A program made the translations under genes and the position numbers. Source: Candidatus Eiseniibacteriota bacterium (GTDB lineage: Bacteria; Eisenbacteria; RBG-16-71-46). From it: 64,000 nucleotides of DNA. The stretch lies in NCBI GenBank assembly GCA_963707915.1, contig OY970178.1, forward strand, positions 2,432,001 to 2,496,000, written 5' to 3'. Within the stretch, counting starts at the first letter, position 1. Each line of letters begins with the position of its first letter. The notes under the pieces were generated by a model, which was given only the letters and a program-made list of their open reading frames with translations, was not told where the DNA came from and did not search any database. Shown here piece after piece: positions 4,081-63,585 of the stretch.

Positions 4081-4995
4081 CTATCGATAGATGGACTTGA
4101 GCGTCCCCCAGGTCGGGGTGGTGGCCGGGACGACCCTCATGTCGCTGGGGCAACGACCCGGGCCGATCAGGCCGCTGTTGAAGGCTCCCAGCGTCCAGGT
4201 CAACACCCGGGTCTCGCAGGGGGTGACCCGGCCGCCGCCGATGGGCGGCACGACCTGCGTACCGATGAGGGCGTCGGCACCGGTCACCGCGGCGGCCACG
4301 AACGGGGTCGGGAGGACACCGAGCTGCATGTTCAACCGGGTCGCGATCAACTGGTGGGCGAGCGATACGAGCCCGTTGCCCCGGGCCGGCTGGCGCAGGA
4401 TGGCGAGCAACTGCGCCTGCGTGTAGGTCACCGACCCCAGCGTGAGCGAGCTCACCCGGCTCCAGCTCTCGGGGTGGTTCTTCCAGTAGCCCTGGCTCAC
4501 CGTGCAGTCGGTGGTGGTGCGCGACGACGTGCCGCAGTGCAGGGTCGCCGAGTTGGCGCTCTCGCCGCGGTCCGGCCCGGCCACCGCGGCCCGCACCCGC
4601 ACGACGTACTCGGTGCCCTCGGTCAACTCGGCGGCGTCCAACGCCATCAGCCCGGTCTCGTCGAAGAGTCCGCCGATCACGACCTCGGCGGTCTGTCCGG
4701 GGGCGAGCTGGAAGCCCTCCGTCCCGGGCGTCGGATGCAGCGTCGGCACGCCGTTGAAGCTGGAGCCGCTGACCGGCGAGACCGGCCAGCCGCCGATCGC
4801 GCGGTAGCGGTCCGCGGGCAGCCATTCGACGACGAATCCCCCGGGCGCGCCGCTCGCACCGGCCTGCACCCGGATGGTGATGGAGGTGCGGTCGGCCGTG
4901 ACGACCGATGCGCCGGGCGCATCGAGCGGGACGCCGAAGACCGGCGCGGCGCCGAGCAGGAAGAGGATAATGACGATGAGGCCGGAAGACTTCAT
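4081..4995 (-). CDS. Secreted hypothetical protein with C-terminal TWG..K..YR tag
   Basis: Signal peptide MKSSGLIVIILFLLGAAPVFG; FN3-like N-part; CTVSQGYWKNH motif; ends VVPATTPTWGTLKSIYR. Confidence 0.8.
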   Translation of the reverse strand: MKSSGLIVIILFLLGAAPVFGVPLDAPGASVVTADRTSITIRVQAGASGAPGGFVVEWLPADRYRAIGGWPVSPVSGSSFNGVPTLHPTPGTEGFQLAPGQTAEVVIGGLFDETGLMALDAAELTEGTEYVVRVRAAVAGPDRGESANSATLHCGTSSRTTTDCTVSQGYWKNHPESWSRVSSLTLGSVTYTQAQLLAILRQPARGNGLVSLAHQLIATRLNMQLGVLPTPFVAAAVTGADALIGTQVVPPIGGGRVTPCETRVLTWTLGAFNSGLIGPGRCPSDMRVVPATTPTWGTLKSIYR

Positions 4996-5505
4996 GAGAT
5001 CCCTCGAGAGGTGGTTCGTGGTAGCGGCGGGAATCGCGGGCCCTGATTCCAGGCCGGGGAGCCTTCGCCCCCACCCAGGGCATCGCAATCGCCGCGCCAC
5101 GGAACCGGTCGCGTCCCGCCCGGCCGGCAAGCGGCGCCCGTTCCCGCCAACTCGCGTCGCCCCATGGCCCTGGGCCTGCGGACGAACGGCCGTCGGGAGT
5201 TTCGCCCGTCCGTCGTGCGGGGCGGGCCGGGGGTGCGACGGGTGAGACCACGGGGCGCGTGGGGGTTCTCGCCCGCGCGAGCCGCGAGCTCGAGCGCGCT
5301 CTCGATCGCGACGACCGCTACCCCGCCGGCAGTCGGCGACGCGCCCGCAGCGCGATCTTCATCCCCCGCTACAGTCTGTGCGCCCGACGACCGATACTCC
5401 GGAGCGACGGTCCCGCGCGGCACCCCGGCCTTCTTGTGGACCGGGGGCGACGTCCGTATCATCTGGCGCCCCGGGGACAGCTTCTCCACGAGCACCGGAG
5501 CCTGA

Positions 5506-7134
5506 ATGCCGCGCCCACCGCACATCGCCTACTTCTGCATGGAGTTCGGGCTGCACGAGTCGTTCCCCATCTACTCGGGGGGCCTCGGCATCCTGGCCGG
5601 CGACTTCATCAAGTCGGCTGCGGACCTCAAGTTGCCGGTGATCGGCGTCGGGCTGCTGTGGGAGCACGGGTACTCGCGGCAGCGCATCGGCCCCGACGGC
5701 CAGCCCCACGAGGAGTTCCCGCGCTACGACTACTCCTACCTGCGCGACACCGGCGTCCACGTGCGGGTCAACGTCCGCGGCACCGAGGTGCCCTGTAACG
5801 TGCTGATGACCACGCGTTTCGGGAACGTGCCGCTCTACCTGATCCAGCCCGCCCGCCTCGCGGACCGCTGGATCACGCACCGGCTCTACGAGGCCGGCAC
5901 CGACGTGCGCATCGCCCAGGAGATGCTGCTCGGCATCGGCGGGGCGCGCGCCCTCACCTGGCTCGGGATCCCGGTAGCGACCCACCACTTCAACGAGGGT
6001 CACGCCGTGTTCGCCGGGATCGAGATGATCGCCTCGCGCATGGAGGGCGGGCTCACCTTCCCCGACGCCTGGGCCGCCACGCGGCGCGAGATCGTCTTCA
6101 CCACGCACACCCCGGTGCAGGCCGGCAACGAGGAGCACTCGCTCAAGGACCTGCGCCGCCTGGGGGCCTGCCTGCAGCTCTCCGGCGCCGAGATGCGGGC
6201 CATCGGCGGCGACCCGTTCAACATGACGGTGGCCGGACTGCGGCTCTCGCGCCGGGCCAACGCGGTGGCCCAGCTGCACGGCGAGACCGCGCGCACGATG
6301 TGGAAGCACATCAACGACGCCGCGCCCATCGTCGCCGTCACGAACGGCGTGCACGCGCCCACCTGGCAGTCGCCGCTGGTGCGCGCGGCCGCCGGCGCCC
6401 CCGGACCGCTGTGGGACGCGCACGCCCTGCACCGCGGCGAACTGCTGTCCGAGATCGAGCGGCGCAAGGGCCTGCGGCTGGACCCCGAGGGGCTGATCAT
6501 CGGCTTCGCGCGCCGGGCGGCGGGCTACAAGCGCCCCGACCTCATCGTGCGGGACGAGAAGCGCCTCGCCGGCCTGCTGGCGCGCGGCGCGCACATCGTG
6601 CTGGCGGGCAAGTCGCACCCCGACGACAAGCTGGGCAAGGCCCTGATCGCGCGCCTGGTCTCGGCCGAGCGCGCCCATCCGGGACAGGTGGTCTATCTCG
6701 AGAACTACGACATGGCCCTGGGACGGATGCTCACGCGCGGTTGCGACGTGTGGCTCAACAACCCCATCCGGCCGCTCGAAGCCAGCGGCACCTCGGGCAT
6801 GAAGGCCGCGATGAACGGCGTGCTCAACCTCAGCATCCTCGACGGCTGGTGGCCCGAGGGCTGCGAGCACGGCGTGAACGGCTGGGCCATCGGCGACAGC
6901 CAGTCGGGCGACGACGCGCGGGACCTGGCCGCCCTCTACGAGGTCCTCGACGGCGAGGTGCTCCCGGCCTGGGCCGACCGTGGGCGCTGGGTCGCGATGA
7001 TGCAGGCCAGCATCACGATGGGCGTGGAGAAGTTCTCCTCGGACCGGATGTTGCGCGACTACTTCGCCGAGGTCTACCCCGCGGGCGAGACCCGGCCGGT
7101 CGAGATGCCCGGAGCCCCGGCCGCCAACCGCTGA
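5506..7134 (+). CDS. glgP: Alpha-glucan (glycogen/starch) phosphorylase, short form
   Basis: AYFCMEFGL..SFPIYSGGLGILAGD, HFNEGH, FTTHTP, GFARR..GYKR, PLP-Lys motif EASGTSGMKAAMNG. Confidence 0.93.
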   Translation: MPRPPHIAYFCMEFGLHESFPIYSGGLGILAGDFIKSAADLKLPVIGVGLLWEHGYSRQRIGPDGQPHEEFPRYDYSYLRDTGVHVRVNVRGTEVPCNVLMTTRFGNVPLYLIQPARLADRWITHRLYEAGTDVRIAQEMLLGIGGARALTWLGIPVATHHFNEGHAVFAGIEMIASRMEGGLTFPDAWAATRREIVFTTHTPVQAGNEEHSLKDLRRLGACLQLSGAEMRAIGGDPFNMTVAGLRLSRRANAVAQLHGETARTMWKHINDAAPIVAVTNGVHAPTWQSPLVRAAAGAPGPLWDAHALHRGELLSEIERRKGLRLDPEGLIIGFARRAAGYKRPDLIVRDEKRLAGLLARGAHIVLAGKSHPDDKLGKALIARLVSAERAHPGQVVYLENYDMALGRMLTRGCDVWLNNPIRPLEASGTSGMKAAMNGVLNLSILDGWWPEGCEHGVNGWAIGDSQSGDDARDLAALYEVLDGEVLPAWADRGRWVAMMQASITMGVEKFSSDRMLRDYFAEVYPAGETRPVEMPGAPAANR

Positions 7135-7150
7135 AGACGGCGGTCCGCCA

Positions 7151-7188
7151 GCGAAGCGGCCGGTCCCGTGCGGGGCCGGCCGCTTCGC
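7151..7188. terminator. Hairpin between convergent genes (bidirectional terminator candidate)
   Basis: GCGAAGCGGCCGGTCCC-GTGC-GGGGCCGGCCGCTTCGC, 17-bp stem with one G-U. Confidence 0.6.
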
Positions 7189-7228
7189 ATCCGTCGCGCC
7201 GGAGCCGCGGGGCACCGGGCCGCGACCG

Positions 7229-7750
7229 CTAGGCTCCGGGGGCGGGCTCCTCGCCGGGGCCCGGCGCCGCTTCCTCGGCCAGCACCGGGATGCGCGCCAG
7301 CGCGGCGATGTAGTCGTCGGGCAGCTTGTGCGCGCGCGCGCCCTTCAGCACGGCGTCCAGGTAGCGACGCGAGGGCGGCGAGGGATTGGCGGTGTGCGCG
7401 AGGTAGGCCATCGCCTTCACACGGCGCGGCACCGAACCGTCCTCGGGCTGCGTCAGCTCGACCCAGACCGGCCCGCGCTCGTAGAGGTTGTGCGGGTCCC
7501 CGGGGCCGCGGAAGCCCTCGTAGCCGTCCAGCGCGCGCACGTCGTCGTCGTTCAGCTCGTGCAGCATCCCCCAGACGTCGTTCCCGTGCGACAGCTGCAG
7601 GCTGGCGACACCACCACCCCACGAGGTCGAGAAGATCGGGAAGATCAGCTTGTGATCGTGCAGCACCGCCATCCCGATCACCTTGTGGGCCGGGCAGCGG
7701 GCGCGCAGCTGGTCGGGGTCCAGGTTCGACCCGAACGCGAAATAGAGCAT
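7229..7750 (-). CDS. Gamma-glutamylcyclotransferase family protein
   Basis: N-terminal YFAFGSNL motif, LDGYEG catalytic Glu, PPS..YL...L.GA..H.LP..YI; GGAGG RBS. Confidence 0.88.
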   Translation of the reverse strand: MLYFAFGSNLDPDQLRARCPAHKVIGMAVLHDHKLIFPIFSTSWGGGVASLQLSHGNDVWGMLHELNDDDVRALDGYEGFRGPGDPHNLYERGPVWVELTQPEDGSVPRRVKAMAYLAHTANPSPPSRRYLDAVLKGARAHKLPDDYIAALARIPVLAEEAAPGPGEEPAPGA

Positions 7751-7969
7751 CTGGCCTCCCAAATCACGAGCCCGGGGCGGAAGCCCCCGGGCGCTGGTCG
7801 AGCCCAGCATAGTGCATGGGGGGCCGCCGCGATATCGGATTGTTGGCCGGGCCGGCCGCCCGCGCCCGGTCCGGGTTTGTCGCGTCCCGGAGGCGCATCT
7901 ATCATCCAACCCTTCGACGGCCCGCCCCGCGTCCGGCCCGGACCCCGACACGAACCGGAGAGACCTGCC

Positions 7970-8698
7970 ATGGCAGTGGACTTCCTCGCTTTCGGCCCCC
8001 ACCCCGACGACGGCGAGATCGGCTGCGGGGCGGTGCTGCGCAAGATGAAGGCGCTCGGGCACACCACCGGCATCGTGGACATGACGACCGGCGACATGGG
8101 CTGGGGCACGGTCGAGGAGCGGCTGGCCGAGTGCGCCGCGGCGGCGGGGATCCTCCGGCTGGACGTGCGCGAGAACCTGGACCTGGGCGACAACCGCATC
8201 GAGGACACGTTCGAGAACCGCTGCGCGGTGGCGGCGAAGATCCGCCAGCACCGCCCGCAGATCGTCTTCGCGCCCTACTACAACCTGCCGATCGGTCGCG
8301 GCCTGGGGCACAACGACCACTACAAGACCGGGCAGATCGTGGCGAACGCCTACAACCTGGCGCACCTGCGCAAGGCGCCGATCGAGGGCACGCCCTACCA
8401 GGCGAAGGCCCTCTACTTCTATTTCCTCCCCCCCGGCACGCCGGCCACGTTCGTGGTGGACGTGAGCGACCACGTGGACGACTGGCTGCGGGCGCTGGAG
8501 TGCCACGTGAGCCAGTTCGCCAACCCCGACAAGCCGCGCCCCGCCGGGTTGCCGGCCCCGACCGACGCGTTCATGGCGTTCGCGCGCTACTGGGGCTGGC
8601 AGATCGGCGTGCGCTACGGGCAGGCGTTCCTCGCGACCGCGCCGCTGCGCGTCGGCGACCCGCTCGCGCTGGTGAAGGAAGTGGTCCCGCGGCCGTGA
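7970..8698 (+). CDS. PIG-L family deacetylase, BshB1-like
   Basis: AFGPHPDDGEIGCG, GIVDMT.G, H.DH (GHNDH), VVDVSD...W..AL.CH.SQF; GGAG RBS. Confidence 0.85.
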   Translation: MAVDFLAFGPHPDDGEIGCGAVLRKMKALGHTTGIVDMTTGDMGWGTVEERLAECAAAAGILRLDVRENLDLGDNRIEDTFENRCAVAAKIRQHRPQIVFAPYYNLPIGRGLGHNDHYKTGQIVANAYNLAHLRKAPIEGTPYQAKALYFYFLPPGTPATFVVDVSDHVDDWLRALECHVSQFANPDKPRPAGLPAPTDAFMAFARYWGWQIGVRYGQAFLATAPLRVGDPLALVKEVVPRP

Positions 8699-8715
8699 CC
8701 CGGCCGCGGTGTCCA

Positions 8716-8745
8716 TTGACGCTCGCGCGACATCGCGACTAAAGT
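8716..8745 (+). promoter_or_regulatory. Sigma70-like promoter for PBP gene
   Basis: TTGACG-18nt-TAAAGT, AT-rich island in GC-rich context. Confidence 0.45.
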
Positions 8746-8815
8746 GCTGCGGTCGCACGACCCGATACCAAGGATGGTCAGGGCACAGCGCCCCCCGGGG
8801 CGTTCAGGAGGTTCC

Positions 8816-9853
8816 ATGCAGTTGCGCGCCTTGCGCGCGTGGGGAGCGCTGCTCCTCGCCGCGCTGGTGGCGTGGCCGGCCACGATGGCCGTCGCCGCCA
8901 CCCACACCCACCGCAAGCCGACGAGCCGCGCCACCGCCACGCCCGCCGCGCACGTGGCGAAGAAGACCACGGCCCGGAGCCGGCTCGCCGCGCGCACGAA
9001 GACGCGCGCCGGCACGAAGAGCGCCGCCGCCGTGCGGCGCGCGAAGAACCGGCGGCACCGCCACGCGCCGGCCCCGCCGCGGGGCGGCGTGTACGCCCGC
9101 AACGCCCTGGTGATCGACCCCGCGACGGACGAGGTGCTGTTCGAGAAGCAGTCGTTGCAGACCGTGCCCATCGCCAGCCTGACCAAGCTGATGAGCGCGA
9201 TGGTGTTCCTCGAGCAGAAGCCGGACCTGCGGCGCATGGCCGAGGTGACGCGCGAGGAGATCCGCGGCGGCGGCCACACGCGGCTCTGGAATCGCGAGCG
9301 GGTGGCGCTCTACGACCTGCTGCACATGAGCCTGATGAACTCCGACAACGTGGCCACGCGCGTGCTGGCGCGCGAGTCCGGGCTGTCGCCGGAGGCGTTC
9401 GCGGCGCGCATGAACGGGAAGGCGCGGGAGATGGGGCTGGCCAACACGCGCTTCGCCGAGCCCACCGGGCTCGACGAGCGCAACGTCTCGACCGCGGTGG
9501 ACGTGGCGCGCCTGGTGCGGGCCGCGGCGGACCACTACCTGATCCGCGAGATCACGACCACGCCCGAATACGTGTTCCTGGGCGAGTACCCCGGGCGCCG
9601 GCACACCGTCGCGCGCACGCACCAGATCGTGAACACCAACCGGCTGCTGCGCAGCAACCGCTACGAGTTCTCGTGCAGCAAGACCGGCTTCATCAGCGAA
9701 TCCGGCTACTGCGTCGCCACCTGGGTGCGCGACCGGGGCCGCGACCTGATCGCGGTGGTGCTGGGCGCGCCGACCAACGCCACGCGCTTCGCCGACGTCG
9801 TGCGCCTGGTCCAGCGAACGCAGATCCCGAGCCTGGAATCGGCGCAACCGTAG
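8816..9853 (+). CDS. D-alanyl-D-alanine carboxy/endopeptidase, peptidase S11 (PBP7-like)
   Basis: Signal peptide, basic linker, PIASLTK (SxxK), SDN (SxN), KTG motifs; AGGAGG RBS. Confidence 0.9.
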   Translation: MQLRALRAWGALLLAALVAWPATMAVAATHTHRKPTSRATATPAAHVAKKTTARSRLAARTKTRAGTKSAAAVRRAKNRRHRHAPAPPRGGVYARNALVIDPATDEVLFEKQSLQTVPIASLTKLMSAMVFLEQKPDLRRMAEVTREEIRGGGHTRLWNRERVALYDLLHMSLMNSDNVATRVLARESGLSPEAFAARMNGKAREMGLANTRFAEPTGLDERNVSTAVDVARLVRAAADHYLIREITTTPEYVFLGEYPGRRHTVARTHQIVNTNRLLRSNRYEFSCSKTGFISESGYCVATWVRDRGRDLIAVVLGAPTNATRFADVVRLVQRTQIPSLESAQP

Positions 9854-9864
9854 CCCGCGCACCG

Positions 9865-10665
9865 ATGGCCGCCCGCGAGCACGTCACCGCCCTGCTGGTC
9901 GGCGTCGCGGCGGGCCTCGCGGGCGGCCTCTTCGGCGTCGGCGGCGGGATCCTGCTCGTGCCGCTGCTCACCGGCGTGCTCTGCCTGAGCCAGCACCAGG
10001 CGCACGGCACGTCCCTCGCCGCCATCGGCGCGACGGCGCTCGCCTCCTTGCTGGTCTACGGCACGCACGGCCACGTGGACTGGGGCACGGCGGCGCTGGT
10101 GGGGGCGGCCAGCATGCTCACGGCGCGCTACGGCGCGCGCCTGGCCGCGCGCACCTCGCGGCGGAACCTGCGACGCGCCTTCGCGCTCCTGCTCGTGTTC
10201 GTCGCGCTGCGCCTGCTGTGGAAGGCGCCCGCGGCCGCGGGTTCGCCGTTCCACGGCGTCGTGCCCGCGGTGGGCTTCGACCTGCTGCTGGGCGCTGCGA
10301 TCGGCCTGCTGGCCGGGTTCATGGGGGTCGGGGGCGGCCTGCTCGCCGTGCCCGCCTTCGCGCTCGTGCTCGGGATGACGCAGCAGACGGCCCAGGGCAC
10401 CTCGCTCGCCGTCATCCTGCTCACCGCCCCGGCGGGCGCCTTCGAACACCATCGCCACGGCAACGTGTCGCTGCGGCTGGTCCCCGCGCTCGCGCTGGGG
10501 GCCGCGGCCGGCGGCCCGGCCGCGTCGTGGCTGGCGCAGTGGCTGCCACAGGCCGTCCTGGCCCGGGCGTTCGCGGTGTTCCTGCTGGCGAACGTGGTTC
10601 ACCTGTGGGCCCGCGCGGGCCGGGGCGCCCCACCCCGTGCCGACCGCGAGGCGACGGCGGGCTGA
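9865..10665 (+). CDS. Sulfite exporter TauE/SafE family membrane protein
   Basis: Twice-repeated G..GVGGG...VP and A.GTSL motifs; about 8 TM segments. Confidence 0.88.
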   Translation: MAAREHVTALLVGVAAGLAGGLFGVGGGILLVPLLTGVLCLSQHQAHGTSLAAIGATALASLLVYGTHGHVDWGTAALVGAASMLTARYGARLAARTSRRNLRRAFALLLVFVALRLLWKAPAAAGSPFHGVVPAVGFDLLLGAAIGLLAGFMGVGGGLLAVPAFALVLGMTQQTAQGTSLAVILLTAPAGAFEHHRHGNVSLRLVPALALGAAAGGPAASWLAQWLPQAVLARAFAVFLLANVVHLWARAGRGAPPRADREATAG

Positions 10666-10769
10666 GTCCCCCCGAAGTCCTTGCCTCTTCGGTCGTTCCG
10701 GGCCGTCGGCCGAGGGCTTCCGCGACGCCTCGTTCCCGCGCCCCGCGAACGGCTCCTCGCTTTCGATGC

Positions 10770-10948
10770 GGTTCGAGCAAGCGGCGGCCGATACGTGGGG
10801 TAACGGCAGAGGGCTGCCCGTGACCCGGCGTGGGATCGAGTCCATGGCGGGAAGCGCAGCCGACGTCCGCCTTCGCGCGGATCCGGATCCGGACCAGGGA
10901 CAGGGTCCGCCCGGCACCACGTTCCACGAACGGCATGGAGGTCCCAGT
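10770..10948 (+). promoter_or_regulatory. Conserved 5' leader, copy C (diverged)
   Basis: Shares GGTTCGAGCA, GGGCTGCCCG, GAGTCCA, GCAGCC, GCGGAT, GGAC..CAGGGTCC blocks with leaders at 12026 and/or 17039. Confidence 0.55.
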
Positions 10949-11647
10949 ATGCGCAGGATGGTCTTCGCGCTCCTCGCGCTCGGCGTCTTCGCGGCTTCGG
11001 CGGCGTTCGCGGCGAGCGACGTCCGCATCAGCCAGGTCTTCGGCGGCAACAGCGCCACCAACTTCTACAACCAGGACTACGTGGAGTTGTACAACTCCAG
11101 CGGATCGGACGTGGACATCAGCGGCTGGGCGGTCGAGTACTCGTCCAGCGCCTCCACCGCGGTCTGGGGCGGCAGCGGCTCCACCTGGCAGACCTACTTC
11201 GTGTTCCCGGCCGGCGCGACGATCAAGGGCTGCGGGTACGTGCTCCTGGGCGGCGCCGAGACCGCCGGCGGCACGGCGATCCCCGCCGCGCTGGACTACG
11301 AGGTCGAGGGCGTCGGCTACATGAACCTCTCGACCAGCAGCGGCCGCGTGGGCCTGTTCAGCTCCTTCTACGCGGGCGCGGGTTGCGGCGCCGAGGGCGT
11401 CGTGCTGCTGGACAAGGTCGCGTACGGCACCGCGGCCTGCCCCGAGGGCACGGCTTCGGCCCCGGCGCCGTCGGGCGTCCTGGCGATCTTCCGCGGAGAC
11501 GGCGGTGCTCTCGACACCGATGAGAACTCGACCGACTTCGTCACCGGCACACCCGCGCCGCGCAACTCGACGTCGGCGACGAACGTGCTTTGCACCGTGC
11601 CGGCAATCCCCACCACGTGGGGCCAGCTCAAGAGTCGCTATCGGTAG
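10949..11647 (+). CDS. Secreted lamin-tail-domain (LTD) protein with TWG..K..YR tag
   Basis: Signal peptide; VRISQVFGG...DYVELYN..G..VDISGW.V.YSS LTD signature; DTDENSTDF..GTPAPRNS; ends TTWGQLKSRYR. Confidence 0.88.
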   Translation: MRRMVFALLALGVFAASAAFAASDVRISQVFGGNSATNFYNQDYVELYNSSGSDVDISGWAVEYSSSASTAVWGGSGSTWQTYFVFPAGATIKGCGYVLLGGAETAGGTAIPAALDYEVEGVGYMNLSTSSGRVGLFSSFYAGAGCGAEGVVLLDKVAYGTAACPEGTASAPAPSGVLAIFRGDGGALDTDENSTDFVTGTPAPRNSTSATNVLCTVPAIPTTWGQLKSRYR

Positions 11648-11670
11648 AGCCCCCGGGCTCAGGATGCTCG

Positions 11671-11699
11671 CGAGGCCCCGCCGGTCCGGCGGGGCCTCG
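11671..11699 (+). terminator. GC-rich hairpin
   Basis: CGAGGCCCCGCCGG-T-CCGGCGGGGCCTCG; same outer stem as 12935-12963. Confidence 0.6.
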
Positions 11700-11990
11700 T
11701 CGCTTGGCGGGCAGGGCCGGCAGCCGTTGCCCCGGGCCCGGTGCGGCCGGCCCGGTGCGGCCGGCCCGGCGTCGCGCCGCCGCGGCGGCGACCGCCGCAG
11801 GTCGTTCCGGCTCGGGCCTTTACGGCCGATCCTCCGATGAGCCTCGTGCCCCGCCGTGGGCCGGGCCGGGCCCGGGCAAGAGGCCCCAGCCGACGAACGA
11901 TGTAACAACGGGTTGGACGGCGACCGTGCGAAGTGCAACGGATTTCAGGGGTTCCGAGCCGTCACCCGCGAGTTCGGCAGGGCGTTACAC

Positions 11991-12019
11991 TTGAATTCCG
12001 CGCGACGTGATCCTATGAT
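11991..12019 (+). promoter_or_regulatory. Sigma70-like promoter
   Basis: TTGAAT-17nt-TATGAT; predicted TSS near 12026. Confidence 0.65.
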
Positions 12020-12025
12020 TATCCA

Positions 12026-12201
12026 GGTTCGAGCAGTGCAGCAAGGGTTGCTGAGATAGCAGCAGAAGGGGCCGCCCGTCCCCCGATACAGGCGCCAGTC
12101 CACCGTGGGAACCGCAGCCAGAGTCCACCTCCAGGCGGATAGGGACAAAGGTCAGGGTCCGCACGACACCGCAGTCCACGCACCACAGGGAGACCCACCC
12201 A
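12026..12201 (+). promoter_or_regulatory. Conserved structured 5' leader, copy A (candidate cis-regulatory RNA)
   Basis: Shares long exact blocks with 17039-17211 (TCCACCTCCAGGCGGATA, AAGGTCAGGGTCC, CACGCACCACAGGGAGACCC). Confidence 0.6.
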
Positions 12202-12915
12202 ATGCGTAAGCTGGTTATCGCTCTTCTCGCGCTCGGCGTCTTCGCGGCTTCTTCGGCGTTCGCGGCGAGCGACGTCCGCATCAGCCAGGTCTTCGGCGGC
12301 AACAGCGCCACCAACTATTACAACCAGGACTACATCGAGCTGTTCAACTCCAGCGGCGTGGACGTGGACATCAGCGGCTGGGCGGTCCAGTACTCGTCCA
12401 GCGCGGCCACCGCGGGCTGGGGCAGCAGCGGCGCCACCTATGCGACCTTCTTCGTGTTCCCGGCTGGCGCGAAGATCAAGGCCTGCTCGTACCTGCTCCT
12501 GGGCTGCGCCGAGACCACTGGTGCCACCAACACGATCCCGGTCGCGTTTGATTACGAAGTCCCGGGCGTTGGCTACCTGAACCTGTCGGCCACCACCGGC
12601 AAGGTGGGTCTGTTCAGCTCGCCGTACACGGCTACGGGAGTCTGCCCGGACGCGGTGGCGGTCCCCACGCTGCTGGACAAGGTGGCGTTTGGCACTGCCG
12701 GTTGCCCCGAGGGCGCTGCTTCCGCCCCGGCGCCGTCGGGCACGCTGGCGATCTTCCGCGCCAACGGCGGCATGCAGGACACCGATCAGAACGGTGCCGA
12801 CTTCACCACCGGCACGCCGGCTCCGCGCAATTCGCTGACGGCAATCAACCCGCTTTGCTCGCCCGTGCCGGCCGTGCCGACCACGTGGGGCAAGGTGAAG
12901 ACCATCTATCGGTAG
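12202..12915 (+). CDS. Secreted lamin-tail-domain protein with TWG..K..YR tag (tandem paralog of 10949-11647)
   Basis: Signal peptide, LTD signature, colinear with upstream paralog; ends TTWGKVKTIYR. Confidence 0.9.
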   Translation: MRKLVIALLALGVFAASSAFAASDVRISQVFGGNSATNYYNQDYIELFNSSGVDVDISGWAVQYSSSAATAGWGSSGATYATFFVFPAGAKIKACSYLLLGCAETTGATNTIPVAFDYEVPGVGYLNLSATTGKVGLFSSPYTATGVCPDAVAVPTLLDKVAFGTAGCPEGAASAPAPSGTLAIFRANGGMQDTDQNGADFTTGTPAPRNSLTAINPLCSPVPAVPTTWGKVKTIYR

Positions 12916-12928
12916 TTTTCGCACGGTA

Positions 12929-12970
12929 CCAACGCGAGGCCCCGCCCATCGGGCGGGGCCTCGACGTTGG
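12929..12970. terminator. Hairpin between convergent genes
   Basis: CCAACG-CGAGGCCCCGCCC-ATC-GGGCGGGGCCTCG-A-CGTTGG. Confidence 0.6.
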
Positions 12971-13015
12971 ATGGCCAGACGTTGTGGTGAGCTGGAACGC
13001 GCGCGGCCGTCGCCG

Positions 13016-15310
13016 TCAGGGCGCGAAGTGGAAGGGTCGGCCTGCTCTGTAACATGCGAGCTGCGCGGCGAAACGGCTGGCGGCCGCGGCGTCGCGCTCC
13101 GCGCGCGCCAGTTCGACGGCGCGCCTGCCTGCGCTGACCGCATCCCGGAATCGCCCCGCCTCCGCGTAGGCCGCCGCCAGCGTGCTGTAGAGCACCGCGA
13201 CCGGCGTCTTGCTGCGGTCCCGGGCCTGCTCGGCCATGCGGACGGCCTCGGCACCGTCTCGGCGCCGCGGGTCGGGGTGGGTCGCCCGGATCCAGGCGAT
13301 GTTGTTGAGTGCGTCCAGGTCGCTCGAATCCCTGCCCACCAGGACCCGGTATTCCGCGATCGCCTCCTCGACCCGGCCCGTGCGCGTGAGCGTGACCGCG
13401 AGCAGACGGCGATCTGCATCGTCCCTGGGCCGCAGCTTGACCACGCGCTTCAACGCGTCGGCGGCCTCGTTCAGCCGACCCTGCTGGCCGAGCGCGCCGG
13501 CCAGCTCCGTCAACGACCGCAGGTAGTCGGGATCGAGGCGCAGCGCGGCCTCGTACTCGGCGATGGCCTCGTCCACGCGGCCCAGCTTCATCAGCGTGCG
13601 CGCGATGTTGTGGTGGATGAGCGCGCTGTCGTCGGTCTTGAGGGCCAGCCGGAAGTGGGCCAGCGCCTCCTGGTAGTGCCCGCGCGCGGCCAGCGTGCTG
13701 CCGAGGTTCACGTGGACCTTAGCGATGTCCCGCGTCCGGAGCACCTCGCGCAGTTGCGCGATCGCCTCGTCCAGCCGGCCCAGCTTGGCCAGTGCGCCGG
13801 CAAGGTTCAGGCGGGCGTCGGCATAGCCCGGGGCCACCCGCAGCACGTCCTCGAAGTGCCGCATGGCCGGCTGGATGCGCCCGGCATCGAGCAACTCGCT
13901 GCCCAGACACTGGTTCGCCGTCGGGTTCGTGGGATCCAGTTCGAGCGTGTAAGTGAAGAGCGTGTGGTTGTCCTTCCACAGGGCGACCTGCCGCGCGGTG
14001 CCCACGGCGCCGGCCACGACCAGTGCGACGGCGGCGACGGCGGCGGCGATGCGCGCGGAGCGGCCGCGCGGCCAGACCTCGTCCACCGTCCAGACCGCGG
14101 CGATCATGAAACCGATGACCGTCAGGTAGGTGTAGCGGTCGGCGTAGGCCTGCATGCCCACCTGCACGAGCCCGATGACCGGCAGCAACATGCCCACGTA
14201 CCAGAGCCAGCCCACCGTGATGTGGGGGCGCGCCCGCCCCCACCACAGGGCCAGCGCGGTGGTGACCAGCAGGGCCGCGGCCGCCAGCATGCCACGGCCG
14301 CCGATGTCGAAGGTCATCTGGTGGAACGGCATCAGGTCGTGCGGCCAGAAGGTCAGCCCCAGGTAACGCCAGTAGGAGAGCGAAGCGTTGAGCACGCGGA
14401 AGCTCCACGACAGGTTCCCCTCGCCGACCACGGCCCCGGTCGCCCGCTGGACGAAGAACGTGGTCGTCGCCTGGGCCAGCACCAGCAGGAACATCGGCCA
14501 CTTCTCGGCGAGCAGGCCGGGCAGCCCGAGGACCGGCGCGCCGCAGGGGGCCCCGGCGGGACGCGCGCGCAGGGGCCAGCCCCGCAGCCGGCCCAGCGGC
14601 CAGATGTCCAGCAGCACGAGGACGAAGGGCAGCGTCACCAGCATGGGCTTGGACATCAGGCCGAGAGCGAGGAGGACCACGACCAGCGCGTAGCGTCCGC
14701 GCCCGGGGCGCTCCGCCCAGCGCGCGTAGGTCCACAGCACGAGCATGAAGAAGAAGCCGCTCAGGACGTCCTTGAGCTCCGAGATCCACGCCACGGATTC
14801 GACCCGCAGCGGGTGCACCGCGAACAGCGCGGCCACGAACAGGCTCTTCCACCAGGACCGCGTGAGCCGGCCCAGGGCCAGGGCCAGCAGCAGCGCGTTC
14901 AGGACGTGCAACACCAGATTCACCGCGTGGTGGGCCCCGGCCTCCAGGCCGAAGGCCTGCGCAGTGAGCATGTGGACCACGGAGGTGAGGGGATGGAAGT
15001 TCCCGCCGTGGGGCGAGTGCAGGATCCAGCGCAATCCGTCCAACGTGAGCCCATTGCTGATGTGCGGGTTCGCACTCACGTACTCGGGGTCGTCGTAGAG
15101 GATCCAGCCGCTGCGCAGCACCCCCGCGAACGCGGCGACGGTCACGCCGGCCAGCAGTGCCAGCGACGCCGGGCGCTGGAGCCGGGCCCAGAGGACCGCG
15201 GGCGTGACGGGCGCCGGGGCCGCGGCGGCCGGCGGGGACGGCGGGGCGACGGGGTCGGGCGCGGGGCTCGGGCCGGGGGAATGCGGGCGGGGTCTCCTCA
15301 CTCGCGGCAT
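13016..15310 (-). CDS. TMTC-like GT-C membrane glycosyltransferase with C-terminal TPR repeats
   Basis: WILYDDPEYV (DD motif), NFHPLT, HHAVNLVLH..N, LFAVHPLRVESVAWISE.KD, MSKPM.VTLP, ADRYTYL, then TPRs and ALNNIAWI.AT; start inferred. Confidence 0.85.
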   Translation of the reverse strand: MPRVRRPRPHSPGPSPAPDPVAPPSPPAAAAPAPVTPAVLWARLQRPASLALLAGVTVAAFAGVLRSGWILYDDPEYVSANPHISNGLTLDGLRWILHSPHGGNFHPLTSVVHMLTAQAFGLEAGAHHAVNLVLHVLNALLLALALGRLTRSWWKSLFVAALFAVHPLRVESVAWISELKDVLSGFFFMLVLWTYARWAERPGRGRYALVVVLLALGLMSKPMLVTLPFVLVLLDIWPLGRLRGWPLRARPAGAPCGAPVLGLPGLLAEKWPMFLLVLAQATTTFFVQRATGAVVGEGNLSWSFRVLNASLSYWRYLGLTFWPHDLMPFHQMTFDIGGRGMLAAAALLVTTALALWWGRARPHITVGWLWYVGMLLPVIGLVQVGMQAYADRYTYLTVIGFMIAAVWTVDEVWPRGRSARIAAAVAAVALVVAGAVGTARQVALWKDNHTLFTYTLELDPTNPTANQCLGSELLDAGRIQPAMRHFEDVLRVAPGYADARLNLAGALAKLGRLDEAIAQLREVLRTRDIAKVHVNLGSTLAARGHYQEALAHFRLALKTDDSALIHHNIARTLMKLGRVDEAIAEYEAALRLDPDYLRSLTELAGALGQQGRLNEAADALKRVVKLRPRDDADRRLLAVTLTRTGRVEEAIAEYRVLVGRDSSDLDALNNIAWIRATHPDPRRRDGAEAVRMAEQARDRSKTPVAVLYSTLAAAYAEAGRFRDAVSAGRRAVELARAERDAAAASRFAAQLACYRAGRPFHFAP

Positions 15311-15321
15311 CCTATGCGGAA

Positions 15322-16725
15322 TCATCCATCGACGGTAGTGGCGCCGGGCTTGGCCAGCGTCCGCATGGGGCGCACCGCGCGTCCGTCGCCGCTCGCGGGC
15401 GGGCGGCCGGAGACGAGCTGGTAGGCCGGGTCGAAGAGGATGACGGGCGGCCGCGTGCGGCGATCGATGCTGCGGTAGAGGGTGTCGAAGAAGACCGCCA
15501 CCTCGGCGGGATCGTCGCCGCGGCGGGGCAGCGGGACGCCCTCGAACGGATCGAACCCGTGGCGCCGGATGAAGCGCTCGCGCGGCAGCGGGTTCGTGAG
15601 GATCGTGGTGTTGATGACCTCGAGGTCGCGCTTCTCGCCCTGCAGCCACTGGTACACCCGCAGGCGCTGGTACCCGTCGTCGGGCCAGAAGACCATCCCG
15701 CTGTCCGACGGAATGGAGTTCCACCGCGCGCGCAGCACCGCGACCACGAGCAGCGCGAGCACCGGGAACAGGAAGGGATAGATGTCGTGGGCGAGCACGC
15801 GCTGTTCCTCGGGGTAGGGCGCGAAGCGGCCGAGCATGTACCGGTACATCGCCCCCGTGGCGTGCTGGTAGAAGTCCCGGACCGACGGGCCGAGGGTGGG
15901 CCAGTTCGCCGGACCATGGCCCTGCGCCCGGAAGTAGAGCAGGGCATAGCTCGAGAGCGGCACGAGGCTGGCGACCGGGCCGAGCCACACGAGCTCCGCC
16001 CGCAGGCGGCGCGCCTTCCACAGCGCCCACAGGAGGCCGAGCGACAGCGGAACGAAGACCCAGGCCGCGGTGACGTGGTGGGCGAGCCCGGCGCCGCAGA
16101 GGAGTCCCCAGAGCACCGCGCTCCAGCGCAGCCGGCCCGTGGACGCGCCCGCGCGAGAGTCGAGCCGGCGGACCAGCCCCACGAAGAAGAGGCACATCCC
16201 GCCCACCAGCGCGAGGTGCCAGCTATAGACCTCGCTGGCGGTGGTCACGTCGGTCCATGCGGGGTTGAGGGCGAAGAGCGGCAGCGGCAGCAGGCCGACC
16301 AGGAATCGCGCCCGCCGTCCGAGCGCGGCCTCGGGCGGGACGAGGCGCACCGCGAGCGCGTGCAGGAAGAACACCGTCACCCCGCCACCCAGCGCACTCC
16401 AGGCGCTCGCGGCATAGGCCCAGCCCGCACCGAGGGCGTGCATCGCGTGCACGAACCCGCCGCCCAGCAGGGTGTAGAGCGGGTAGCCGGTGGGATGGGC
16501 GATGCCGTCCAGGGCGAGGGCCAGGGTGAGCTCGCTCGAGTCGCCGTCGCCCGGAACGGCAGGGGCCAGCAGCAGGTAGACCGCCAGCGCCATGAGCGCG
16601 GGGAGCACGGACCAGAGGATCGGCAGGGCGCGGGCCGACCGGGATTCGGCCCCGGCGGCGCCGCGGTCCCGGGAAGGGTCTTCCCGGCTCGTCGGTCCGC
16701 GTTTCGATCCCACCGGTCTTGCCAT
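15322..16725 (-). CDS. DUF2723 / TMEM260-like membrane glycosyltransferase
   Basis: GDSSELT.....GIAHPTGYPLYTLLG, W..T.SEVY, GLAHH motifs; multiple TM helices. Confidence 0.8.
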   Translation of the reverse strand: MARPVGSKRGPTSREDPSRDRGAAGAESRSARALPILWSVLPALMALAVYLLLAPAVPGDGDSSELTLALALDGIAHPTGYPLYTLLGGGFVHAMHALGAGWAYAASAWSALGGGVTVFFLHALAVRLVPPEAALGRRARFLVGLLPLPLFALNPAWTDVTTASEVYSWHLALVGGMCLFFVGLVRRLDSRAGASTGRLRWSAVLWGLLCGAGLAHHVTAAWVFVPLSLGLLWALWKARRLRAELVWLGPVASLVPLSSYALLYFRAQGHGPANWPTLGPSVRDFYQHATGAMYRYMLGRFAPYPEEQRVLAHDIYPFLFPVLALLVVAVLRARWNSIPSDSGMVFWPDDGYQRLRVYQWLQGEKRDLEVINTTILTNPLPRERFIRRHGFDPFEGVPLPRRGDDPAEVAVFFDTLYRSIDRRTRPPVILFDPAYQLVSGRPPASGDGRAVRPMRTLAKPGATTVDG

Positions 16726-17003
16726 GACCGGGCATCCTATCTCACGCGCCCCGGCTGGCAAGCGGGCGAAGCGCGACGCGGCGCCGGGATGCCTGGCTCC
16801 GCCGCGGCCACCGCGGCCCATCCAGGCCCGGGCCGTCGCGGCGGCCCGGATGCCGGACGTCATGCACTTGCGGGCCGATCCCGGCCCGGGTGAAAACCCC
16901 CGATACCACCGCCCACGGGACAGCGAGCTGAACCGTTGGCGGCGTGGCGACGCGATCTTCGGGAGATCCCGCCCGGATCCGCGCGCCTTCCCCGGTTCTC
17001 TCC

Positions 17004-17032
17004 TTGTGTCGTGCGCACGGGTTCAATATGCT
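17004..17032 (+). promoter_or_regulatory. Sigma70-like promoter
   Basis: TTGTGT-17nt-TATGCT, at nearly the same distance from the ATG as the promoter at 11991. Confidence 0.55.
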
Positions 17033-17038
17033 TGTCGT

Positions 17039-17211
17039 GCTCCAACGTGCGCCGACGTCGGGAGGACAGTGCCAGCAGGGCTGCCCGTCCCCGGACGACG
17101 GGCGCGAGTCCACCGTGAGAACCGCAGCCCGACTCCACCTCCAGGCGGATACGGACGAAGGTCAGGGTCCCCACGACATCACGGTTCACGCACCACAGGG
17201 AGACCCCCAAC
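17039..17211 (+). promoter_or_regulatory. Conserved structured 5' leader, copy B
   Basis: Near-identical to 12070-12201; perfect stem GCCCGTC/GACGGGC at 17083-17103. Confidence 0.6.
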
Positions 17212-17943
17212 ATGCGCAGAATGGTTATCACTCTCCTCGCTCTCGGCGTTTTCGCGGCGTCGGCAGCCTCCGCTGCCACTTTCTGGAGTGAGACGTTCAG
17301 CTACGCGAACGGCGGACTCGTGGCCAACTCGGGCGGAAACTGGGTCGGGCACAGCACGAGCACGTCCACCACCTACATCGACATCCAGGTCGTCAACGGC
17401 GAAGCCGTGCTCATCGGTGCCAACGGCCAGGACGACAGCCGCAACTTCACCGCCCGGAGCGCCTCGGCGGCAACGTATGCCTGCTTCCAGATGAAGTTGA
17501 CGGGAACGGAGACCTCCGGCAGCTCCTACGTCACACACTTCAAGAACAACAGCACCGGGTTCGTGAGCCAGGTGTTCGTCTTCCCGACCGGCGCCACCAC
17601 GTTCAACATCGGCATCAACTCCACCTCCGCGGTCCCGACCGGTGCCTCCATCTGGCCGACCCCGCTCACCAAGGGCACCTTCTACACGATCGCCATCCGG
17701 TACAATGCGGCCACCGGCGTCTCGACGCTCTGGGTGGACCCGCAGAGCGAATCGAGCGCGAGCATCAACTCGACGACCACCACCATTGGCACCCTGATTT
17801 CCGGATTCGCGCTTCGCCAGGCCACCGGCGCCAGCACGACCTTCGACAACATCCAGGTCGGCGACGCCTTTGCCGATCTTTGCCCGGCAGTCGTGCCCAC
17901 CAACAGCAGCACCTGGGGCCAGCTGAAGTCCCTGTACCGGTAG
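17212..17943 (+). CDS. Secreted Ser/Thr-rich beta-sandwich-like protein with TWG..K..YR tag
   Basis: Signal peptide nearly identical to the LTD paralogs, unrelated mature domain (FWSETFSYANG...FDNIQVG); ends STWGQLKSLYR. Confidence 0.85.
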   Translation: MRRMVITLLALGVFAASAASAATFWSETFSYANGGLVANSGGNWVGHSTSTSTTYIDIQVVNGEAVLIGANGQDDSRNFTARSASAATYACFQMKLTGTETSGSSYVTHFKNNSTGFVSQVFVFPTGATTFNIGINSTSAVPTGASIWPTPLTKGTFYTIAIRYNAATGVSTLWVDPQSESSASINSTTTTIGTLISGFALRQATGASTTFDNIQVGDAFADLCPAVVPTNSSTWGQLKSLYR

Positions 17944-18167: not shown

Positions 18168-20921
18168 ATGAAGAAGTGGGCTGCTCCGTTCCTCGCGGCG
18201 GTACTCGTCCTCGCGGCGCTCCTGCCCTCGCCCGCGCAGTCGGCGATCATCATCTCCGAGCTGTGCGATCCGCTGAACAACTACCCCACCGACCGCTTCA
18301 TCGAGATCGCCAACGCCGGCACGGACACCGTGGACCTGGCGGGCTGGACGCTGGTCGCGCTGATGAACACCACCGGCACGCCCGGCTCGTTCACCTGGCC
18401 GCTCTCGGGCTCGATCGCCCCCGGCCAGGCCCTGGTCGCGAGCAGCACGACGCCGGTCACGGTCTTCCCGGTGACCTTCGCCGCTGCCGCGTGGTCGTCC
18501 AGCAATGCCCAGTGGAACGGCGCGATCGGCGACGGGGCGAAACTGGTGAACGCGAGCGCCGTGACGGTGGACTACGTCACCGTGCCCGGGACCGTCTTCT
18601 CGAACGCCACCATGGTCCGCAAGCCCAGCATCTACGCGGGCAACTCCGCTTACGTCGCCGCCGAGTGGACCGTGACCGCGGTCACGCTGGCCACCGATGC
18701 GAGCCCCGGCACGCACGTCCTGAACCCGCTGCCGCCGGGACCGTCCATCAAGCAGGTGGTCACCGACCCCCCGGTCCCGCTGGCCGGCGCGGGCGTGAAC
18801 GTGCAGGCCACCGTGACCGATTCCGCCGCGGCCATCACCTCGGTCGCGCTGCTGTGGGGGACCAGCCCCTCGTCGCTGTCCAACACCATCGCCATGCCGC
18901 TCCTCGCGGACAGCACCTATCGCACGACCACGCCGGTACCGGGACAGGCCGAGGGCGTGACCGTCTACTACAAGGTCCAGGCCAGTGATGCGTCGGTGAC
19001 CAAACTCTCCGAGCTGAAGAGCTACACGCTCGACTACGACCGGACCATCGCGCAGATCCAGGGCGGCGTCCCTACCTCGCCTTTCAACGGCCTCGGCGTC
19101 ATCACCCGCGGGGTCGTCACCGCGCGCTATCCCTCGTACCTGGTCGTGCAGGACGGCAGCGGGCCGTGGAGCGGCCTGTGGGTGCGCAGCAGCGCCACGC
19201 CCACGGTCGGCGACTCGGTCACCGTGCGCGGCCTGGTCACCGAGAGCGACGTCCAGGGCCTGGCCGGCACGACGCTGCTGACCAGCGGGATCGTGCTCGC
19301 CGCCTCCCCCGCGGCCACCTTCCCCGCGCCCGCCGTGGTCACCAGCGCCGTCGCGTCGTCGGAGGCCTACGAGGGCGTGCTGGTCAAGGTCGCGAGCGCG
19401 CCCTGCACGGACGTCTCGCTCGGCTCCGGGCAGTGGCTGGTGAACGACGGCAGCGGCGCCTGCCGGGTGGGCGCGCTGGGATACGCCTTCACGCCGATCC
19501 TCGGCACGGCCTACGACGTGACCGGCCCGGTCCTCTACAGCGGCGCCTTCGTGATCGAGCCGCGCGAAGCGGGCGACGTCGCCTGGGCGGCGGACCACGC
19601 CGCGCCCGTCGTGGTCGCGCTGTTCGAGGAGAGCGACTCGACCCTGCTCGTGACCTTCTCCGAGCCGCTCGAGCAGGCCAGCGCCGAGACCCCCACCCAC
19701 TACGCGGTCGGCGCTCACGTCGCGACCGCCGCGGTGCTCGACCTCGCGCACCCCGAGCAGGTCACGGTCACCGTGCCCGGGATCCCCGCCGGCTCGGTCA
19801 CCTTCTCCGCCACCGGCGTGGCCGACCTGTACGCCAACGCCACCAGCGGTGCGACCTGGGCCTTCAACTTCGTGGACACGCGCATCCCCGCGGGCTACTA
19901 CGACAGCGCGTTCGGGCTGCGCGGCACGGCGCTGCGCGCCGCGCTGCACGACATCATCAAGAACCACGCCTCGCAGAGCTACGACTACGCGCTGACCGCC
20001 TTCCAGACCACCGACGTCAAGCCCAACCGCAAGGTCTGGGACGTGTACTCGGACGTCCCGGGCGGCACGCCGCCCTACGAGTACGACTTCGGCGGGGGCA
20101 GCGGAGGCGGGACGGAGGGCGGCGGCTACAACCGGGAGCACTCCTGGCCGCAGTCCTGGTTCGGCGGCGCCCTGCCGATGTACTCCGACCTGTGGATCCT
20201 CTACCCGACCGACATCAAGGTGAACGAGTACCGCGCCAACTGGCCGTACGGCGACGTCTCGACCCCGACCATCACCTCGCTGAACGGCAGCATGCTCGGG
20301 CCATGCTCCGACGCCGGTTACTCCGGCACCGCGTTCGAGCCGATCGACGCCTTCAAGGGCGACCTGGCGCGCAGCCACTTCTACGTCGCCACGCGCTACT
20401 ACACCGAGGACGCCGGTTGGGCGACCAGCGAGGCCACCAGCGGCGCGGACCTGCTGCCGTGGGCGAACACCACGTACCTCGCCTGGCACGCGAACGACCC
20501 CGTGAGCCGCAAGGAGCAGTTGCGCAACGGCGCCATCTACGTGATCCAGAACAACCGCAACCCGTTCGTGGATCACCCGGAGTTCGCCGCGCGGCTGTTC
20601 GACTCGACTTCGACCGCGGCCGTGACCGACGTGCCGCGGCTGGCGTTCCGCCTGCACCAGAACGCGCCCAACCCGTTCCGTCCCTCGACCACCATCCGCT
20701 TCGACCTGCCCCAGCGTGCGGCGGTCAGCCTGCGCGTCTACGACGTCGCGGGCCGGCTGGTGCGTGAACTGGTGTCGGGGAACACGCTCGAGGCGGGCAC
20801 GCACTCGGTGGCCTGGAACGGGCGGGGCGAGTCCGGGCAGCGCGTCGGCGCCGGGCTCTACTTCTGCCGCCTGCAGGCCGGGGCGTTCAGCGCGACGCGG
20901 CGGATGGTGCTCGCCAACTGA
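18168..20921 (+). CDS. Secreted endonuclease I family nuclease (LTD + OB-fold + EndA/Bsn-like + FlgD-Ig C-terminal domain)
   Basis: Signal peptide, IIISE...FIEI.N LTD, TIAQIQG..GVVTA OB-fold, YNREHSWPQSWF, KGDLAR, QNNRNPFVDHPE, LHQNAPNPF.PST.I.F.L...VYDV.GRLVR...W.G....G.V.AG.YF CTD. Confidence 0.9.
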   Translation: MKKWAAPFLAAVLVLAALLPSPAQSAIIISELCDPLNNYPTDRFIEIANAGTDTVDLAGWTLVALMNTTGTPGSFTWPLSGSIAPGQALVASSTTPVTVFPVTFAAAAWSSSNAQWNGAIGDGAKLVNASAVTVDYVTVPGTVFSNATMVRKPSIYAGNSAYVAAEWTVTAVTLATDASPGTHVLNPLPPGPSIKQVVTDPPVPLAGAGVNVQATVTDSAAAITSVALLWGTSPSSLSNTIAMPLLADSTYRTTTPVPGQAEGVTVYYKVQASDASVTKLSELKSYTLDYDRTIAQIQGGVPTSPFNGLGVITRGVVTARYPSYLVVQDGSGPWSGLWVRSSATPTVGDSVTVRGLVTESDVQGLAGTTLLTSGIVLAASPAATFPAPAVVTSAVASSEAYEGVLVKVASAPCTDVSLGSGQWLVNDGSGACRVGALGYAFTPILGTAYDVTGPVLYSGAFVIEPREAGDVAWAADHAAPVVVALFEESDSTLLVTFSEPLEQASAETPTHYAVGAHVATAAVLDLAHPEQVTVTVPGIPAGSVTFSATGVADLYANATSGATWAFNFVDTRIPAGYYDSAFGLRGTALRAALHDIIKNHASQSYDYALTAFQTTDVKPNRKVWDVYSDVPGGTPPYEYDFGGGSGGGTEGGGYNREHSWPQSWFGGALPMYSDLWILYPTDIKVNEYRANWPYGDVSTPTITSLNGSMLGPCSDAGYSGTAFEPIDAFKGDLARSHFYVATRYYTEDAGWATSEATSGADLLPWANTTYLAWHANDPVSRKEQLRNGAIYVIQNNRNPFVDHPEFAARLFDSTSTAAVTDVPRLAFRLHQNAPNPFRPSTTIRFDLPQRAAVSLRVYDVAGRLVRELVSGNTLEAGTHSVAWNGRGESGQRVGAGLYFCRLQAGAFSATRRMVLAN

Positions 20922-34955: not shown

Positions 34956-34963
34956 GGCTCCTC

Positions 34964-63572: not shown

Positions 63573-63585
63573 GGCAGGCCCCTCC

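Follow-up and report, generated by a model that had tools for sequence, protein, structure and literature searches.

In LPXTG, PEP-CTERM and MYXO-CTERM signals, exported proteins bear a short motif close to the C-terminus, and behind it a transmembrane helix and basic residues. In the LptD–LptE and MtrB–MtrA complexes, a partner protein fills the lumen of a large barrel. Type IX secretion systems (T9SS) read, in their type A version, a Sec signal peptide together with a portable C-terminal domain (CTD) that serves as an address on unrelated passengers. According to PMC11969387, even the short CTDs are β-sheets of 40–51 residues and the PorU cleavage consensus in Prevotella is PT/GI; PMC12618676 assigns to a second class of signals, type B, shuttles of its own, PorP/SprF. 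Here we describe a tail of about ten conserved residues on small signal-peptide proteins in a 64,000-nucleotide stretch (the window; G000:C1:2432001-2496000) of a Candidatus Eiseniibacteriota genome, the source genome G000, which is a single contig (C1) of 3.62 Mb and 72% GC. As judged from sequence, the partner of this tail is probably a putative complex of a barrel protein and two lipoproteins (LP1 and LP2) encoded elsewhere on the contig. Hence, we advance, as a tentative but quite possible reading, that the tail is a docking peptide read by this barrel–lipoprotein complex, which would likely export small folded proteins independently of type IX secretion.

The first-pass annotation of the window had proposed a C-terminal sorting signal, composed of an upstream Cys, VP, TWG, K and a terminal YR, on four signal-peptide proteins with three unrelated mature domains. 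The four open reading frames carry the tail endings exactly as claimed, and each of their products starts with the basic and hydrophobic N-terminus of a signal peptide. The three mature types are likewise borne out: (i) a 304-residue protein at 4081..4995 on the minus strand, without a Pfam match over cut-off and paralogous to a gene at 1260574-1261500 of the contig; (ii) two paralogous lamin-tail-domain (LTD) proteins of 232 and 237 residues at 10949..11647 and 12202..12915 on the plus strand; (iii) a 243-residue protein of no named family, again without a Pfam match, at 17212..17943 on the plus strand. In each of them the ten codons of the tail core stand directly ahead of the stop codon (4084..4113 on the minus strand; 11615..11644, 12883..12912 and 17911..17940 on the plus strand).

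Across the source genome, a six-frame search with a loose form of the motif, [TS]WG-x(1,2)-[LVIM]K, returned 29 matches, with one at 11 residues before a stop codon, one internal, and all the rest at exactly 10. Among the 2863 called genes the core motif is terminal in 26 and internal in none, just 3% of positions lying so near an end. This near-exclusive terminal position, in six-frame matches and called genes alike, indicates that the tail is not a chance pattern. A position matrix search found two further tails and, with two frames lacking a full gene dropped (452548, 15 residues; 1817927, 81 residues), the resulting set comprises 28 proteins of 178-382 residues in 20 BLAST groups, whose tails read [TS]WGx[LIV]KxxYR or a close variant. 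By Pfam, their passengers include a CBM20, three lamin-tail domains, two NHL propellers and a cohesin, with weak matches to dockerin and reeler, the remainder being of no clear family. A signal-peptide heuristic passes 27 of the 28 as against 562 of 2665 genes, a rate that is optimistic for the tail proteins since their starts were chosen partly by hydrophobicity. As the first-pass annotation had held, the signal differs from LPXTG, PEP-CTERM and MYXO-CTERM: no transmembrane helix or basic cluster follows the motif, and the protein stops 10 residues past the T/S in 27 of the 29 matches. Searches against Pfam and NCBIfam gave no model for the tail (window proteins; the 28 proteins of the source genome for Pfam; 130 tails for NCBIfam), and a tail profile found no match among solved structures. 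No common barrel or shuttle partner is encoded among the three genes on each side of the called tail genes of the source genome.

The composition of the signal has to be redrawn in part. Its Cys is optional, being present in 18/28 tails of the source genome and in 75/130 elsewhere, and so is VP (12/28; [VT]P in 18/28). L082, a chance match, and L373, the same gene as L363, do not enter the counts of this analysis. The terminal YR stands in 25/28 tails but is missing from the other three. The label ‘amphipathic’ holds only loosely, with a helical hydrophobic moment modestly above that of shuffled tails (0.50 vs 0.40, SD, standard deviation, 0.18). This last value bears on a receptor-free alternative, namely that the tail is an amphipathic helix that binds the membrane or lipopolysaccharide and thereby keeps exported proteins on the envelope. 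Its Trp/Lys/Tyr/Arg composition and its retention in cells with no barrel match would suit such a role. However, the slightness of the excess over shuffles, an invariant W-G and K and an exact distance to the stop codon that fit a protein pocket, and a presence that tracks the barrel operon leave this alternative very improbable. Two further features of the source genome touch the tail. A tandem pair of tail genes at C1:2665358-2666847 (L018), whose paired C-terminal sequences recur in several other genomes (L044, L049, L083, L098, L114 and L115), is by its sequence a putative conserved core cargo, and a degenerate tail with F replacing W, outside the strict motif, occurs at C1:267794-268486 on the plus strand.

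The candidate reader lies outside the window, on the minus strand at C1:355448-359021, and came to notice because a relaxed tail search caught the tail of LP2. In this operon, the gene of a 705-residue barrel protein (356904-359021) is followed by that of LP1, a lipoprotein (356239-356883), and, as the last gene, by that of LP2, a second lipoprotein ending in a TWG variant (355448-356242). No Pfam or NCBIfam model matched any of the three. The operon is single-copy whatever the number of tails, and the barrel often stands directly behind ksgA in the phylum of the source genome. The predicted barrel (predicted local distance difference test, pLDDT, 88; predicted template modelling score, pTM, 0.70) has 28 strands by our count from the secondary structure of the model; its N-terminal portion is small and helical, and it lacks a plug. 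Its best Foldseek match is MtrB, at a template modelling (TM) score of 0.42 and 8% identity. It is reminiscent of LptD–LptE and MtrB–MtrA as a large barrel with lipoprotein or protein partners, but is set apart from them by its 28 predicted strands, its NTF2-like partners, the want of a family match and a separate LptD in the same genome. An identity as LptD was itself considered and rejected: neither the barrel nor 22 of its relatives match an LptD model of Pfam or NCBIfam, and PF19838 matches a separate gene at C1:3275715. Convergent with the operon is the gene of a 504-residue outer-membrane protein (C1:353779-355293, plus strand) with a PopA-family porin match below cut-off.

Modelling points to an NTF2-like fold for LP2, with three helices and a curved sheet, which superposes on the NTF2-like/SnoaL-like structures 3rob, 3b8l and 3ef8 at Z 13-14 (for 3rob, VIA Z 13.7, rmsd, root-mean-square deviation, 2.5 over 123 aligned residues). 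Several of these alignments reach residues 231–235 of the tail. Unlike those structures, LP1 and LP2 are lipoproteins of no Pfam family, encoded together with an outer-membrane barrel. In the model the tail segment of LP2 is helical and has a pLDDT of 85-94, behind a disordered linker at 46-62. In an alignment of 216 rows (effective number of sequences, Neff, 129), two column pairs joining tail and core covary at z 6.3 and 5.3 against 6.6 for the best core pairs, scores that subfamily structure can inflate. Taken together, the tail confidence, the structural alignments into the tail and the covariation suggest that the tail of LP2 packs on its own NTF2-like domain. A motif of the form [TS][WF]G stands within the last 30 residues in 103/120 close relatives of LP2, and a relaxed tail form in 80/148 more distant ones; one LP2, L088, was excluded from the tail profile A6.

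We surveyed 151 genomes of the phylum of the source genome, 41 of a Zixibacteria-labelled phylum (that of G152), 41 of a Latescibacteria-labelled phylum (that of G153) and the 21 genomes, of 0.6-1.3 Mb, of a Kerfeldbacteria-labelled order (that of G155). LP1 closes with W-x-x-W-x-D and then, after a short linker, a motif of the T/S-W/F-G type directly behind its last strand; among the aligned rows, 22/25 have this motif in a loose form and 15/25 as [TS][WF]G. In the Zixibacteria-labelled genomes this end is SW[AG]x[FL]KxxYR-like, that is, the cargo tail itself. There and in the G153 phylum LP2 is mostly tail-less, many lineages stopping at W-x-x-W-x-D, and one protein, P0234, has the NTF2-like domain without the tail and a CTD-like end. 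LP2-type genes are also tandemly expanded (G153, L180:1189-2082; L182, L192, L203), with L180 containing a single frame of repeated NTF2-like domains and the TWG motif between them.

The first-pass annotation had itself considered that the tail might be an integral element of one fold. This applies in part, the tail being a native terminal element of the NTF2-like lipoproteins, but it is also found on 20 sequence groups. These facts bear on a further alternative: the tail might help one protein family to fold, or might have been carried along passively at the end of a copied cassette and do nothing for most of its passengers. Its nativeness to LP1 and LP2 would agree with this, as would the organization of three window genes, those at 10949, 12202 and 17212. 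These share, as if from one cassette, a 5' leader of ~140 nt and signal-peptide codons (10810..11020, 12060..12273 and 17075..17283, plus strand, left edges approximate); in the alignment of these regions, which spans 261 nt, column identity averages 82%. The unit is kept in the third of these genes despite its unrelated mature domain; its sequence makes a regulatory RNA, or an expression cassette with a swapped passenger, possible. Yet the 20 sequence groups in one genome, the spread of the tail over three phyla and a tiny-genome order, and a tail that stays invariant on a diverging body render the alternative barely credible.

We base the proposed link between tail and operon on shared sequence and on one clean co-occurrence test. 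This comes from the Zixibacteria-labelled phylum, whose presences and absences are read from genomes without stated completeness. LP1 and the barrel occur together in 12/41 genomes. A signal-peptide protein of ~130-145 residues ending in TWGKIKALF[KR] accompanies them in every one of these 12; it was found in none of the remaining 29, which gave just two weak matches, both in longer proteins. Ten aligned copies of this protein have bodies 33-72% identical to the first and an invariant tail. Of two weak matches to the same domain, one in an operon-positive and one in an operon-negative genome, both lie in proteins that end like T9SS type A cargo. With the loose pattern, TWGKIKALF appears at one further place in the operon-bearing genomes; the total counts are at control level, and the signal comes from reading the matches. 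The YR-biased profile A6 matched just 2/41 genomes, overlooking the LF-ending cargo and the LP1 tail. In operon-negative genomes, ksgA is followed by a gene other than the barrel (5/5 checked). On a quick RecA tree of 40/41 of these genomes (G198, without a RecA match, was left out), the tail/operon state changes four times, three of them forced by starred branches; this may reflect one gain and several losses, and kin are not independent. In the phylum of the source genome, the exact tail pattern with a stop codon occurs in 143/151 genomes (0 for the reversed control) and the barrel in 142/151 (116 at first, and 26 of the other 35). In the G153 phylum the tail is present in 41/41 and LP1 in 40/41 genomes. 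A scan of all species yielded at least 132 stretches, mostly Eisenbacteria or unnamed, with some from Krumholzibacteriia, Latescibacteria, Zixibacteria and Kerfeldbacteria. Among 72 closed frames from loci with wide flanks, 63 have a hydrophobic N-terminus, with lengths of 156-480 residues.

The source genome also encodes a T9SS: SprA, PorU over cut-off and four PorV/PorQ-family barrels, of which three (among those at C1:21121, 1033965, 3072987 and 475702) lie near large proteins and T9SS-like cargo and the fourth directly behind PorU. The GldM profile found no match in this genome, a control profile being equally silent. There are 78 TIGR04183 matches, 72 of them over cut-off. As first claimed for the window, two neighbours of the tail genes end in a T9SS-A-like/FlgD_ig domain: an LTD and Endonuclease_1 protein with a FlgD_ig/TIGR04183 CTD (18168..20921, plus strand) and a Peptidase_M6 protein with a FlgD_ig CTD (41245..43200, minus strand), both without a TWG tail. 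The same passengers occur with either ending: the LTD proteins of the window match a 1103-residue CTD protein, while a 709-residue protein with a CTD-like end is matched by three of the five proteins in one tail group. Sizes diverge, with a median of 247 residues for tail proteins vs 688 for T9SS type A proteins (58/76 over 500).

These data bear on a rival in which the tail would act as a minimal type IX signal, with one of the four PorV/PorQ-family paralogues as its reader and SprA as the exit. The presence of these components, the swapping of passengers between tail and CTD and, according to PMC12618676, the existence of type B signals with shuttles of their own would all favour it. On the other hand, SprA is present in 41/41 Zixibacteria-labelled genomes, including the 29 without the conserved tail protein, even short T9SS CTDs are much longer β-sheets according to PMC11969387, and the peptide is used N-terminally in other cells. 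One further idea, that TWG precedes the T9SS domain, was tried and rejected ([TS]WG at 0/78 CTD matches, from 40 residues before to 30 into the domain). Compared with CTD linkers, in view of a putative PorU site, the tail linker scores 2.49 vs 2.58 for its shuffles (SD 0.31) and 1.26 for random body windows; it is of low complexity, reading P-[VT]-[PASG]-[VTA]-[ER], with Pro commonest directly after the would-be PorU cut. Hence, we consider a minimal type IX signal quite improbable. The tail does share with type A signals the Sec signal peptide, a portable C-terminal address on unrelated passengers, a genome and passenger domains, but it consists of ~10 conserved residues predicted as a helix rather than a β-sheet domain, matches none of TIGR04183, PF18962 and PF13860, sits on small passengers and follows the barrel operon, not SprA. 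With type B it would share the principle that one cell has a further class of signal and a separate reader for it, but tail genes are scattered without a consistent barrel or shuttle neighbour, and the reader proposed here combines a 28-strand barrel and NTF2-like lipoproteins. By model match and predicted fold the tail falls outside type A, and tail, barrel and lipoproteins appear to be uncatalogued; we found no published description of tail or operon in a search that left supplements and most subscription journals aside.

The Kerfeldbacteria-labelled order shows a different use of the motif. In 31 distinct proteins read, it is C-terminal in 22 and stands directly behind the signal peptide in nine (loci L358, L363, L364, L369, L370, L372, L374 and L179), where it precedes M23 (3), C39-like (3) and CHAP/NlpC (1) domains or regions of no family (2). 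Of the C-terminal proteins, 9/20 tested match tail proteins of the source genome. The N-terminal placement implies that a free C-terminus is not always required for the peptide; the proposal of a strictly C-terminal signal thus has to be given up for these 9/31 proteins. What stands of the first-pass idea of a dedicated machine reading a portable tag is that the tail is portable on exported proteins, that it occupies the place where relatives have a T9SS type A domain, and that a candidate machine can now be named. Cells of this kind are generally considered to live on hosts and are not known to have an outer membrane. From its sequence contexts, the use of the tail in this order fits a site on the surface of another cell and disfavours an export signal that is simply cleaved off.

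The tail's nativeness to the lipoprotein fold, together with its N-terminal use, argues for a docking peptide rather than a strictly C-terminal, cleaved signal. Briefly, we propose the following mechanism. The cargo tail would be a copy of the terminal helix of LP1. A small protein with its observed signal peptide would leave the cytoplasm by Sec and then fold, after which its tail would take, in trans, a site on an NTF2-like lipoprotein, as modelled solely for the tail that LP2 itself carries. In other lineages LP2, being tail-less, may present this site open. The lipoproteins would gate the pore of the barrel, and the wide, plug-less 28-strand barrel would let the cargo through and then hold or release it at the surface. 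If the barrel–LP1–LP2 complex is indeed the partner, then passage of the cargo through the barrel is likely, given the size ceiling, the passenger types and the co-occurrence.

Several points weigh against this proposal. The LP2 monomer model and the covariation, with its inflatable z scores, concern LP2's own tail and not cargo in trans, and binding and transport by the complex are themselves predictions from sequences and models. No energy source was found for the proposed export. The small size of the cargo may just reflect single-domain passengers, and the single conserved cargo of the Zixibacteria-labelled genomes could be a fourth subunit and not a substrate. In the phylogenetic profiling suggested by the first-pass annotation, the barrel–LP1 pair tracks the tail protein in 12/41 genomes, but in G152 one TWG..YR frame lies at the end of a contig and the operon has no match; in the phylum of the source genome, 6 of the 8 genomes without the strict tail pattern still have the barrel. 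Finally, the Kerfeldbacteria-labelled order keeps the motif in 17/21 genomes and G155, the sole genome of the order that was checked, has no match to barrel, LP2 or SprA; therefore the tail there cannot serve a barrel of the same cell.

A rival reading is docking or anchoring alone: by binding to the NTF2-like lipoproteins, the tail would keep its proteins attached to the envelope, on the periplasmic or surface side, and the barrel would have another job, with no cargo passing through it. In favour of this, the peptide is used at either end, it is kept where neither barrel nor SprA was matched, the operon of the Zixibacteria-labelled genomes goes with a single invariant partner, and the operon remains single-copy regardless of tail number. 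Nevertheless, we take docking alone to be unlikely: the passengers include surface-type domains also seen with T9SS type A domains, which need some route out, the proteins read have a size ceiling near 480 residues, and the modelled barrel lacks an inbuilt plug domain.

A wider and somewhat unlikely scenario goes further. This would be an undescribed secretion system related to the Fibrobacteres–Chlorobi–Bacteroidetes (FCB) group, a plug-less barrel gated by two NTF2-like lipoproteins, in which cargo displaces the terminal helix of the gate with its own copy; Kerfeldbacteria-like cells would use the same password before M23, C39-like and CHAP/NlpC hydrolases, sent through or onto the gate of a host. 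If the link between tail and operon holds, three uncultured phyla would possess, alongside T9SS, another route for protein export or docking, whose signal of ten residues is apparently copied from a subunit of its own machine. It would also name the reader of the tail, assign a function to the orphan 28-strand barrel, and, for the wall hydrolases of tiny-genome bacteria, predict both the hosts and a way of delivery. As leads only, look-alike clusters in the Atlas, of no family for the barrel, have Cloacimonadota and Bacteroidota as their commonest taxa, and those of an LP1 relative fall in Rhodothermota, Ignavibacteriota and Bacteroidota. These last three groups include cultured members, so the idea may be testable.

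The window holds further genes of note. An IS481-like transposase is encoded at 24037-25263 on the minus strand; a 433-residue DUF5723/TraF_2-like protein and a 181-residue lipoprotein-like gene lie at 34410-36265 on the same strand, as does a pair of small exported-protein genes at the window end (63030-64000). The lipoprotein-like genes scanned in these two regions gave no family match. Genes of several membrane proteins, of which one or more contain many TPR repeats, are interspersed with exported-protein genes at 13016-16608, 21235-23709, 29379-31484 and 43328-45505; these proteins may resemble protein glycosyltransferases. Elsewhere on the contig (C1:3398745-3400784), RecA matches fall in two pieces within one 817-residue open frame, a split that in sequence terms suggests an intein-like insertion.

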